This document shows positions 33,150 to 56,371 of a stretch of DNA of 64,000 bases, piece by piece. Below the pieces are notes generated by a model, which was not told the DNA's origin, did no database searches, and saw only the letters and a program-made list of their open reading frames with translations. The number at the start of each line of letters is the position of its first letter. Positions within the stretch are counted from its first letter, which is position 1. Source of the DNA: Escherichia coli (lineage in GTDB: Bacteria; Pseudomonadota; Gammaproteobacteria; Enterobacterales; Enterobacteriaceae); NCBI RefSeq assembly GCF_046105845.1, contig NZ_CP151004.1; one strand, given 5' to 3'. The position numbers and the translations under genes were made by a program.

Positions 33150-33291
33150 CGGTAAAGCCCTCACCGAAGCGAGGGCTTGAAGGAGAAGGGTTATGATGCG
33201 ACTTGTCATCATACTGATTGTACTGTTACTCATAAGTTTCCCAGCTTATTAACAGTCAGTCTCAGGGGAGGAGTCATCCTCCCTTACCCTT
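33150..33291 (-). ncRNA. sibC: SibC antisense sRNA (antitoxin to ibsC); boundaries approximate
   Basis: Opposite strand of ibsC; putative sigma70 promoter (TTGACA, 17-nt spacer, TAATTT) at 33299-33327 and a minus-strand GC hairpin (33165-33188) with T-rich tail at the other end. Confidence 0.6.
33193..33252 (+). CDS. ibsC: Type I toxin IbsC (19-aa hydrophobic peptide)
   Basis: SD aggagaaggg then ATGATG...; translation MMRLVIILIVLLLISFPAY, one residue different from the IbsC sequence I recall; not in ORF track because it is too short. Confidence 0.85.
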   Translation: MMRLVIILIVLLLISFPAY

Positions 33292-33298
33292 ACTCACT

Positions 33299-33327
33299 AA
33301 ATTAGGTTAAAGAATCAACGATGTCAA
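33299..33327 (-). promoter_or_regulatory. Putative sigma70 promoter of sibC
   Basis: Minus-strand TTGACA (33322-33327) with 17-nt spacer to TAATTT (33299-33304). Confidence 0.45.
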
Positions 33328-33973: not shown

Positions 33974-34159
33974 AGGGAATCTCCGAGATGCCGCCGCAGG
34001 CTGTAACCCTTGAACCCTTGGTTCAAGGTGAATGTGTCGTCGCAGTTTTAAGGCTTCTCGGACGGACCGAGCATGCTCACCAACCGCGGAGCGCCACATT
34101 CTTGTGGTATGAAATATCGGCTCAGGGGACTGGCCCGCTTGCGAACATCTCAGAGAAAT
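33974..34159 (-). ncRNA. ssrS: 6S RNA (RNA polymerase sigma70-holoenzyme regulator)
   Basis: Minus-strand sequence AUUUCUCUGAGAUGUUCGCAAGCGGGCCAGUCCCCUGAGCCGAUAUUUCAUACC...GGAGAUUCCCU matches the E. coli 6S RNA as I recall it; located between zapA and ygfA. Exact 3' end uncertain by a few nt. Confidence 0.93.
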
Positions 34160-51921: not shown

Positions 51922-53655
51922 GTGAAACAACAGATACAACTTCGTCGCCGTGAAGTCGATGAAACGGCCGACTTGCCCGCTGAATTGCCTCCCTTGCTGC
52001 GCCGTTTATATGCCAGCCGGGGTGTGCGTAGCGCGCAGGAACTGGAACGCAGTGTTAAAGGCATGCTGCCCTGGCAGCAACTGAGCGGCGTCGAAAAGGC
52101 CGTTGAGATCCTTTACAACGCTTTTCGCGAAGGAACGCGGATTATTGTGGTCGGTGATTTCGACGCCGACGGTGCCACCAGCACGGCTCTAAGCGTGCTG
52201 GCGATGCGCTCGCTTGGTTGCAGCAATATCGACTACCTGGTTCCAAACCGTTTCGAAGACGGTTACGGCTTAAGCCCGGAAGTGGTCGATCAGGCCCATG
52301 CCCGTGGCGCGCAGTTAATTGTTACCGTGGATAACGGTATTTCCTCCCATGTGGGGGTTGAACACGCTCGTTCGTTGGGCATTCCGGTTATTGTTACCGA
52401 TCACCATTTGCCGGGCGACACATTACCCGCAGCGGAAGCGATCATTAACCCTAACTTGCGCGACTGTAATTTCCCGTCGAAATCACTGGCAGGCGTGGGT
52501 GTGGCGTTTTATCTGATGCTGGCGCTGCGCACCTTTTTGCGCGATCAGGGCTGGTTTGATGAGCGCGGCATCGCAATTCCTAATCTGGCAGAACTGCTGG
52601 ATCTGGTAGCGTTGGGGACAGTGGCGGACGTCGTGCCGCTGGACGCTAATAATCGCATTCTGACCTGGCAGGGGATGAGTCGCATCCGTGCCGGAAAGTG
52701 CCGTCCAGGGATTAAAGCGCTGCTGGAAGTGGCAAACCGTGATGCACAAAAACTCGCCGCCAGCGATTTAGGTTTTGCGCTGGGGCCACGTCTCAATGCT
52801 GCCGGGCGACTGGACGATATGTCCGTCGGTGTGGCGCTGTTGCTGTGCGACAACATCGGCGAAGCGCGCGTGCTGGCAAATGAACTCGATGCGCTAAACC
52901 AGACGCGAAAAGAGATCGAACAAGGAATGCAAGTTGAAGCCCTGACCCTGTGCGAGAAACTGGAGCGCAGCCGTGACACGCTACCCGGCGGGCTGGCAAT
53001 GTATCACCCCGAATGGCATCAGGGCGTTGTCGGCATTCTGGCTTCGCGCATCAAAGAGCGTTTTCACCGTCCGGTTATCGCGTTTGCGCCAGCAGGTGAC
53101 GGTACGCTGAAAGGTTCCGGTCGCTCCATTCAGGGGCTGCATATGCGTGATGCGCTGGAGCGATTAGACACACTCTACCCCGGCATGATGCTCAAGTTTG
53201 GCGGTCATGCGATGGCGGCGGGTTTGTCGCTGGAAGAGGATAAATTCGAACTCTTTCAACAACGGTTTGGCGAACTGGTTACTGAGTGGCTGGACCCTTC
53301 GCTATTGCAAGGCGAAGTGGTGTCAGACGGTCCGTTAAGTCCAGCCGAAATGACCATGGAAGTGGCGCAGCTGCTGCGCGATGCTGGCCCGTGGGGGCAG
53401 ATGTTCCCGGAGCCGCTGTTTGACGGTCATTTCCGCCTTCTGCAACAACGACTGGTAGGCGAACGCCATTTGAAGGTCATGGTTGAACCGGTCGGCGGCG
53501 GCCCGCTGCTGGACGGCATTGCCTTTAACGTTGATACCGCCCTTTGGCCGGATAACGGCGTGCGCGAAGTGCAACTGGCTTATAAGCTTGATATCAACGA
53601 GTTTCGCGGCAATCGCAGCCTGCAAATTATCATCGACAATATCTGGCCAATTTAG
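51922..53655 (+). CDS. recJ: Single-stranded-DNA-specific 5'-3' exonuclease RecJ
   Basis: 577-aa ORF with GTG start; DHH motifs (DFDADGATS, DHH). Confidence 0.96.
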   Translation: MKQQIQLRRREVDETADLPAELPPLLRRLYASRGVRSAQELERSVKGMLPWQQLSGVEKAVEILYNAFREGTRIIVVGDFDADGATSTALSVLAMRSLGCSNIDYLVPNRFEDGYGLSPEVVDQAHARGAQLIVTVDNGISSHVGVEHARSLGIPVIVTDHHLPGDTLPAAEAIINPNLRDCNFPSKSLAGVGVAFYLMLALRTFLRDQGWFDERGIAIPNLAELLDLVALGTVADVVPLDANNRILTWQGMSRIRAGKCRPGIKALLEVANRDAQKLAASDLGFALGPRLNAAGRLDDMSVGVALLLCDNIGEARVLANELDALNQTRKEIEQGMQVEALTLCEKLERSRDTLPGGLAMYHPEWHQGVVGILASRIKERFHRPVIAFAPAGDGTLKGSGRSIQGLHMRDALERLDTLYPGMMLKFGGHAMAAGLSLEEDKFELFQQRFGELVTEWLDPSLLQGEVVSDGPLSPAEMTMEVAQLLRDAGPWGQMFPEPLFDGHFRLLQQRLVGERHLKVMVEPVGGGPLLDGIAFNVDTALWPDNGVREVQLAYKLDINEFRGNRSLQIIIDNIWPI

Positions 53656-53745
53656 CGTCATCTTCTCTATAAAAAAGAGCGTGGATTGGGTACAATCCCG
53701 CTCTTATCACCGCATTTTGACTAGCTCAAGAAAAGAAATCAGACC

Positions 53746-54844
53746 ATGTTTGAAATTAATCCGGTAAATAATCGCATTCAGGACCTCACGGAACGCTCCG
53801 ACGTTCTTAGGGGGTATCTTTGACTATGACGCCAAGAAAGAGCGTCTGGAAGAAGTAAACGCCGAGCTGGAACAGCCGGATGTCTGGAACGAACCCGAAC
53901 GCGCACAGGCGCTGGGTAAAGAGCGTTCCTCCCTCGAAGCCGTTGTCGACACCCTTGACCAAATGAAACAGGGGCTGGAAGATGTTTCTGGTCTGCTGGA
54001 ACTGGCTGTAGAAGCTGACGACGAAGAAACCTTTAACGAAGCCGTTGCTGAACTCGACGCTCTGGAAGAAAAACTGGCGCAGCTTGAGTTCCGCCGTATG
54101 TTCTCTGGCGAATATGACAGCGCCGACTGCTACCTCGATATTCAGGCGGGGTCTGGTGGTACGGAAGCACAGGACTGGGCGAGCATGCTTGAGCGTATGT
54201 ATCTGCGCTGGGCAGAATCGCGTGGTTTCAAAACTGAAATCATCGAAGAGTCGGAAGGTGAAGTGGCGGGTATTAAATCCGTGACGATCAAAATCTCCGG
54301 CGATTACGCTTACGGCTGGCTGCGTACAGAAACTGGCGTTCACCGCCTGGTGCGTAAGAGCCCGTTTGACTCCGGCGGTCGTCGCCACACGTCGTTCAGC
54401 TCCGCGTTTGTTTACCCGGAAGTTGATGACGATATTGATATCGAAATCAACCCGGCGGATCTGCGCATCGACGTTTATCGCGCGTCCGGCGCGGGCGGTC
54501 AGCACGTTAACCGTACCGAATCTGCGGTGCGTATTACCCACATCCCGACCGGGATCGTGACCCAGTGCCAGAACGACCGTTCCCAGCACAAGAACAAAGA
54601 CCAGGCCATGAAGCAGATGAAAGCGAAGCTTTATGAACTGGAGATGCAGAAGAAAAATGCCGAGAAACAGGCGATGGAAGATAATAAATCTGATATCGGC
54701 TGGGGCAGCCAGATTCGTTCTTATGTCCTTGATGACTCCCGCATTAAAGATCTGCGTACCGGGGTAGAAACCCGCAACACGCAGGCCGTGCTGGACGGCA
54801 GCCTGGATCAATTTATCGAAGCAAGTTTGAAAGCAGGGTTATGA
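53746..54844 (+). CDS. prfB: Peptide chain release factor 2, expressed through a programmed +1 frameshift
   Basis: Frame 0: ATG 53746 to codon 25 CUU (53818-53820) then in-frame UGA (53821-53823), giving [25 protein letters not shown]; +1 frame from GAC at 53822 continues [22 protein letters not shown]... to 54844 (ORF track 53963..54844). Total 365 aa; GGQ motif present. Confidence 0.95.
53806..53824 (+). promoter_or_regulatory. prfB autoregulatory frameshift site (internal SD + CUU UGA C)
   Basis: cttagggggtatctttgac: SD-like AGGGGG three nt upstream of the slippery CUU-UGA-C. Confidence 0.9.
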
Positions 54845-54853
54845 GGAACCAAC

Positions 54854-56371
54854 ATGTCTGAACAACACGCACAGGGCGCTGACGCGGTAGTCGATCTTAA
54901 CAATGAACTGAAAACGCGTCGTGAGAAGCTGGCGAACCTGCGCGAGCAGGGGATTGCCTTCCCGAACGATTTCCGTCGCGATCATACCTCTGACCAATTG
55001 CACGCAGAATTCGACGGTAAAGAGAACGAAGAACTGGAAGCGCTGAACATCGAAGTTGCCGTTGCTGGCCGCATGATGACCCGTCGTATTATGGGTAAAG
55101 CGTCTTTCGTTACCCTGCAGGACGTGGGGGGCCGCATTCAGCTGTACGTTGCCCGTGACGATCTGCCGGAAGGCATTTACAACGAGCAGTTCAAAAAATG
55201 GGACCTCGGCGACATCCTCGGCGCGAAAGGTAAACTGTTCAAAACCAAAACTGGCGAACTGTCTATCCACTGCACCGAGCTGCGTCTGCTGACCAAAGCA
55301 CTGCGTCCGCTGCCGGACAAATTCCACGGCTTGCAGGATCAGGAAGCGCGCTATCGTCAGCGTTATTTGGATCTCATCTCTAACGATGAATCCCGCAACA
55401 CCTTTAAAGTGCGCTCGCAGATCCTCTCTGGTATTCGCCAGTTCATGGTGAACCGCGGCTTTATGGAAGTTGAAACGCCGATGATGCAGGTGATCCCAGG
55501 CGGTGCCGCTGCGCGTCCGTTTATCACCCACCATAATGCGCTGGATCTCGACATGTACCTGCGTATCGCGCCGGAACTGTACCTCAAGCGTCTGGTGGTC
55601 GGTGGCTTCGAGCGTGTATTCGAAATCAACCGTAACTTCCGTAACGAAGGTATCTCCGTACGTCATAACCCAGAGTTCACCATGATGGAACTCTATATGG
55701 CTTACGCGGATTACAAAGATCTGATCGAGCTGACCGAATCGCTGTTCCGTACTCTGGCACAGGATATTCTCGGTAAGACGGAAGTGACCTACGGCGACGT
55801 GACGCTGGACTTCGGTAAACCGTTCGAAAAACTGACCATGCGTGAAGCGATCAAGAAATATCGCCCGGAAACCGACATGGCAGATCTGGACAACTTCGAC
55901 TCTGCGAAAGCGATTGCTGAATCTATCGGTATCCACGTTGAGAAGAGCTGGGGTCTGGGCCGTATCGTTACCGAGATCTTCGAAGAAGTGGCAGAAGCAC
56001 ATCTGATTCAGCCGACCTTCATTACTGAATATCCGGCAGAAGTTTCTCCGCTGGCGCGTCGTAACGACGTTAACCCGGAAATCACAGACCGCTTTGAGTT
56101 CTTCATTGGTGGTCGTGAAATCGGTAACGGCTTTAGCGAGCTGAATGACGCGGAAGATCAGGCGCAGCGCTTCCTGGATCAGGTTGCCGCGAAAGACGCA
56201 GGCGACGACGAAGCGATGTTCTACGACGAAGATTATGTCACCGCACTGGAACATGGCTTACCGCCGACAGCAGGTCTGGGAATTGGTATCGACCGTATGG
56301 TAATGCTGTTCACCAACAGCCATACCATCCGCGACGTTATTCTGTTCCCGGCGATGCGTCCGGTGAAATAA
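54854..56371 (+). CDS. lysS: Lysyl-tRNA synthetase, constitutive
   Basis: 505-aa [36 protein letters not shown]...; class II aaRS motifs. Confidence 0.97.

Follow-up and report, generated by a model that had tools for sequence, protein, structure and literature searches.

prfB with the canonical +1 programmed frameshift site in an Escherichia coli-type genome

Introduction

The gene at positions 53746 to 54844 (plus strand) of the DNA analysed here raises a plain question: its first 25 codons run into an in-frame stop and the coding sequence continues in another frame, so is it damaged, is it wrongly delimited, or is it prfB, the gene for release factor 2 (RF2), with a working arrangement for changing frame? 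The stretch that contains it, referred to throughout as the window, is 64 kb long. prfB is the classic case of translational autoregulation via programmed frameshifting, known from E. coli since 1985-86. The +1 frameshift of the E. coli K-12 gene was reportedly described by Craigen et al. in 1985 and by Craigen and Caskey in 1986, and prfB frameshift sites across Bacteria are said to have been treated by Baranov et al. in 2002. An initial annotation of the window had called the site intact. We followed it up and consider it almost certain that 53746-54844 is prfB of an Escherichia coli-type genome and that, at codons 25/26, it has the canonical +1 programmed ribosomal frameshift through which the gene is autoregulated.

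Results

Two reading frames join into one full-length RF2

Frame 0 opens with ATG at 53746 and comprises 25 codons (53746-53820, plus strand); read in codons, the letters from 53746 to 53824 begin ATG TTT GAA ATT AAT CCG and end CTT AGG GGG TAT CTT TGA C. Codon 26 of this frame is a premature in-frame TGA (53821-53823, plus strand), a stop specific to RF2. In the +1 frame, 340 codons are open from GAC at 53822, and this second segment (53822-54844, plus strand) encodes Asp26 to Leu365 and ends with TGA at 54842-54844. Joined, the two segments give a product of 25 + 340 = 365 residues, which aligned from residue 1 to residue 365 with solved E. coli RF2 chains (E about 1e-240). Against 1gqe (E = 8e-241), the sole difference was at residue 298, which is Leu in the window and Val in the structure; against 1ml5, it was at residue 246, Ala in the window and Thr in the structure. 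The junction itself, RGYL followed by DYDAKK (Leu25-Asp26), is reproduced in the solved RF2 sequences.

Family models and annotation of related genomes gave the same identity. The joined product scored 525.9 bits with the NCBIfam model TIGR00020 (prfB; cut-off, 370) and fell below the cut-offs of the models for RF1, and the motifs of a class-I release factor 2 were located at residues 205-207 (SPF) and 250-252 (GGQ). The 1,301 bp from 53600 to 54900 have 100% identity with the DNA of several strains, E. coli SMS-3-5 among them. In the RefSeq record of SMS-3-5, prfB is a two-piece coding sequence noted as "programmed frameshift," its pieces corresponding to the two segments above and its ends mapping to window positions 53746 and 54844; the RefSeq record of K-12 MG1655 likewise has a two-piece prfB with the same note.

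A mechanical list of open reading frames divides the gene differently, into a 25-aa ORF (53746-53823) and a 293-aa ORF (53963-54844, plus strand) that starts at the internal Met73. The +1 frame is open from 53768 onward and has its first ATG, GTG, or TTG only at 53963; because no start precedes that position, a plain ORF caller yields 293 of the 365 residues and misses the first 72. Neither the ORF list nor translation of the frames contained a continuous single-frame prfB ORF.

The signals of the shift site are all present

An internal Shine-Dalgarno (SD)-like AGGGGG, formed by the codons for Arg22 and Gly23, occupies 53809-53814 (plus strand) and is an element of the published consensus (PMC12421855). 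It is followed by the 3-nt spacer TAT (Tyr24; 53815-53817, plus strand), which would be the E-site codon when the shift occurs. The distance from AGGGGG to CTT is thus exactly 3 nt, and that to the stop is 6 nt. The slippery CTT T (53818-53821, plus strand) consists of the Leu25 codon CTT (53818-53820) and the T of the stop, and the base directly 3' of TGA is C (53824, plus strand), giving the weak UGAC termination context that is also an element in PMC12421855. Every element on the list in that study (AGGGGG, 3-nt spacer, CTTT, TGA, and C) is therefore found by direct reading. The AGGGGG is part of a motif, AGGGGGNNNCTTTGAC, that with at most one mismatch had a single match on both strands of the 64 kb, where 0.04 matches were expected and 4 of 100 shuffled sequences contained any; this lone match is the exact frame junction of the RF2 gene.

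An Rfam scan of 53400-54200 at an E value of up to 1 found no family, so that the site lacks a curated RNA model. Folding of 53790-53890 gave no detectable downstream stimulatory structure (z = -1.3). The unremarkable fold and the lack of an Rfam match are both expected, since a site of the prfB type needs no downstream RNA structure.

These results bear out what the initial annotation had said of the site: that the first 25 codons end at CUU followed by an in-frame UGA and then C, that AGGGGG lies three nucleotides upstream of the shift site, that the rest of RF2 lies in the +1 frame, and that a naive ORF caller reports a 293-aa piece and drops the 72 N-terminal residues (365 - 293 = 72). The checks that it had proposed, translating both frames for alignment to RF2 and reading the CUU UGA C context, returned residues 1-365 with one substitution per structure and the context as described. 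The two findings that it had named as refuting were absent: the 25 N-terminal codons do align to RF2, and the gene has no continuous single frame. Its word "intact" holds at the level of the sequence, in which all of the signals are present; the efficiency of frameshifting and the autoregulation in this strain may be expected to resemble those in the literature on E. coli K-12 and B.

Neighbourhood of prfB and the rest of the window

prfB lies between recJ (51922-53655, plus strand) and lysS, the gene for lysine-tRNA ligase (54854-56371, plus strand), both identified from their ORFs and from the RefSeq annotation of identical DNA. From the TGA of prfB to the ATG of lysS there are only 9 nt (54842-54856, TGAGGAACCAACATG), and the likely SD of lysS, GAGGA, overlaps the prfB stop. 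This spacing is consistent with co-transcription of the two genes and possibly with coupled translation. The spacer between recJ and prfB contains a hairpin at 53675-53705 (plus strand; AAGAGCG-GGAUUG...CAAUCC-CGCUCUU) with a 13-bp stem, an A-run before it, and a weak U tract after it; the 96-nt fold has a z of -2.95, and a terminator scan flagged the inner stem on the minus strand. The hairpin may be the recJ terminator or a bidirectional element. In a consensus scan for sigma-70 promoters, the recJ-prfB spacer gave nothing convincing, and the one match, inside prfB, was within chance expectation.

Elsewhere in the window, the Rfam gathering scan identified 6S RNA (ssrS; 33976-34159, minus strand; 139.8 bits) and a SIB antitoxin RNA (33177-33327, minus strand; 136.5 bits). 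The counterpart of this region in SMS-3-5 is annotated as zapA-ssrS-fau and the type I toxin gene ibsC. Despite the identity around prfB, the window as a whole is not strain SMS-3-5: the blocks that align with that genome (NC_010498.1) are about 96.4 to 98.8% identical, and colinearity is lost in the first 31 kb, which appear as shifted, rearranged, or indel blocks. None of the complete RefSeq genomes of E. coli, 5,426 in number, is the source of the window: for 40000-64000, the best of them was 98.4% identical over the 24 kb. Such comparisons of sequence suggest that the window comes from a lineage poorly represented among complete genomes and that its prfB region may be mosaic.

The site is conserved within E. 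coli

Among 5,426 complete genomes of E. coli, 5,425 matched the region 53600-54900 at an identity of at least 95%, with one match each. The remaining genome lacked a match, and another carried it on a record labelled as a plasmid; both are probably oddities of assembly or labelling. The 52 bp from 53775 to 53826, which include the whole cassette, fell in the band of at least 99% identity in 5,412 of the 5,426 genomes, a count that may miss changes in the three final bases because BLAST trims mismatches at the ends.

Compared with K-12 MG1655, prfB of the window has 15 single-base differences, 14 of them synonymous and none within 53809-53824. The only amino acid difference is at codon 246 (54481-54483), which is GCG (Ala246) in the window and ACG (Thr246) in K-12; Ala246 is the canonical and more active form of RF2, and Thr246 is a peculiarity of K-12 (PMC5373646). 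The difference nearest the site, 3 nt past the context C, is at 53827, a common T/C polymorphism at which the window has T (TAT, Tyr27) and K-12 has C (TAC), a synonymous change in the RF2 frame. In frame 0, the T creates a second stop, so that the window reads UGA CUA UGA where K-12 reads UGA CUA CGA. The 81 bp from 53780 to 53860, which include 53827, were identical to the window in 997 of the 5,425 matching genomes (roughly 18%).

We know of no functional consequence of T at 53827, a position beyond the known stop-context hexanucleotide. It is conceivable that this T slightly alters the downstream context of the recoding site and that, together with the more active Ala246 RF2, it shifts the RF2 set point in this lineage and the genomes that share the allele, or changes what becomes of readthrough ribosomes. 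We consider this very unlikely.

Occurrence of the site across species

An exact-pattern scan for AGGGGGNNTCTTTGAC in contigs of one genome per species returned at least 120 loci. For 109 of the 120 matches listed, BLAST aligned the two-frame product with the RF2 of the window, and the alignment crossed the junction in every locus that was long enough. At two more (L041 and L092), prfB was cut by the end of the locus and was recognised by the peptide before the stop, LRGYL or FRGSL, bringing the prfB total to 111 of the 120 listed. These prfB loci span Gamma-, Beta-, and Alphaproteobacteria, Bacillota, Bacteroidota, Myxococcota, Gemmatimonadota, Fusobacteriota, and others. Counted from the first ATG, frame 0 was 21 to 27 codons long in 89 of the 109 listed loci that have one.

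Among the 111 prfB loci listed, the spacer codon was TAT in 63, TCT in 29, TTT in 9, CAT in 7, and another codon in 3, its third base, T, being fixed by the search pattern. The codon preceding AGG varied freely among codons for Leu, Phe, and Ile in these loci, and the sequence of the frame-0 peptide was kept across phyla (for example, LRGYL and FRGSL). The other nine of the 120 listed matches lie outside prfB (L004, L011, L014, L051, L058, L061, L075, L105, and L118), one of them in a contig of the archaeon Nitrosarchaeum, and are taken as chance occurrences because the downstream frame is not RF2-like.

Having been picked by the motif, this sample speaks to the specificity of the motif for prfB and to its breadth of occurrence, and not to independent conservation of each base. 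For the same reason, the claim of base-by-base conservation rests on the survey of Prince et al. (2025), who found the prfB frameshift in 64% of 12,753 genomes and described a consensus of AGGGGG, CTTT three nucleotides downstream, a stop that is almost always TGA and never TAG, and a conserved C next to it (PMC12421855). In the same survey, prfB of the Actinomycetota was without the frameshift.

Discussion

How a ribosome would cross the stop in this gene can be described from the published work on E. coli, as summarised in PMC12421855 (citing Craigen et al. 1985, Craigen & Caskey 1986, Weiss et al., and Marquez et al.). A ribosome in frame 0 would reach a point at which CUU (Leu25) fills the P site and the A site holds UGA. 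With C as the next base, UGA is a weak stop, read by RF2 only, and here termination by RF2 and frameshifting would compete. With RF2 plentiful, termination would release a peptide of 25 residues; with RF2 scarce, the ribosome would pause. Pairing of AGGGGG with the 16S rRNA anti-SD, at this spacing, would then destabilise the E-site tRNA, and the P-site peptidyl-tRNA-Leu would slip from CUU to UUU, after which GAC (Asp26) would be decoded and the full 365-aa RF2 made. The outcome would be negative feedback on RF2 synthesis.

Slippage, SD:anti-SD pairing, and negative feedback are thus what the literature leads us to expect of this gene; the present analysis itself shows how the site is built, that its two-frame product is RF2, and that the cassette is conserved. 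The anti-SD of E. coli is 3'-UCCUCC-5', and from it we infer the pairing of the internal SD; the Rfam gathering scan of the window found no rRNA gene, the 6S and SIB RNAs being its only results. At the native E. coli locus, ribosome profiling has put frameshifting at about 28% in K-12, with Thr246 RF2, and at about 21% with the Ala246 (B-type) RF2 (PMC5373646).

Three other explanations of the broken frame were weighed. A stop followed by continuation in the +1 frame is formally what insertion of a single nucleotide would produce, and the break could on that ground have arisen by mistake in sequencing or assembly, or through an inactivating mutation that makes prfB a pseudogene. This would have to reconcile an accident with a 52-bp segment that lies in the band of at least 99% identity in 5,412 of 5,426 complete E. 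coli genomes, with the same break and signals in prfB of the 111 listed loci from many phyla, and with RefSeq records that label it as programmed. Moreover, UGA is read by RF2 alone, and no second copy of prfB was seen, the gene matching at one place per E. coli genome. The chance that prfB is broken here is, in our judgement, negligible. We give equally little credence to an independent start at ATG 53963, with a truncated RF2 of 293 aa as the true product and the 25-codon ORF as an unrelated upstream frame. That ATG is indeed the first start-type codon of the +1 frame and the choice of the ORF caller, but residues 1-72 of the joined product align without a gap to solved full-length RF2, and the open +1 frame resembles RF2 from as early as 53822, 141 nt upstream of the ATG. 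In addition, the 20 nt upstream of 53963 (TTGTCGACACCCTTGACCAA) contain no purine-rich SD, and the frame-0 peptide that this reading would dismiss is the one conserved across phyla as LRGYL or FRGSL.

The stop might also be bypassed by recoding of another kind, UGA readthrough or a -2 shift, in place of +1 slippage. Nothing specific speaks for either beyond the leakiness of the UGA-C context (PMC12421855). Readthrough would lead into a frame that is not RF2-like beyond the UGA and that stops again two codons on (UGA CUA UGA), and a -2 shift would add a Phe, giving RGYLFDYD where RF2 sequences have RGYLDYD; the probability that either operates here is tiny. The data examined contained no evidence against a +1 programmed frameshift.

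With the +1 programmed frameshift as the preferred explanation, the closest comparison is with E. coli K-12 prfB, which the window resembles in its recJ-prfB-lysS neighbours, in the position of the shift at codons 25/26, in the cassette CTT AGG GGG TAT CTT TGA C, and in the 365-aa product. It differs from the K-12 gene in the 15 base differences, which include Thr246 in place of the window's Ala246 and C in place of the window's T at 53827. Measured against prfB sites across Bacteria, the window fits the consensus (AGGGGG, 3 nt, CTTT, GA, C) exactly and has the commonest spacer codon, TAT, found in 63 of the 111 loci listed; there is no difference in kind, other lineages carrying TCT, TTT, or CAT as the spacer codon. 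A more distant relative is the frameshift of E. coli dnaX, at which, as at prfB, an internal SD-like element is established to stimulate frameshifting. The dnaX shift is in the -1 direction, at an A AAA AAG heptamer with a longer SD spacing and a downstream stem-loop. Unlike dnaX, the prfB site of the window is without these features, having no significant structure and no Rfam match.

In sum, the site in this window is the very recoding site of E. coli prfB, a known one that standard annotation (PGAP) deals with. Its intact presence in a further E. coli-type genome brings nothing new to a frameshift surveyed in more than 12,000 genomes in 2025. The finding matters for annotation only: a pipeline that ignores recoding would give a truncated RF2 of 293 aa, or a pseudogene, in place of an essential gene.
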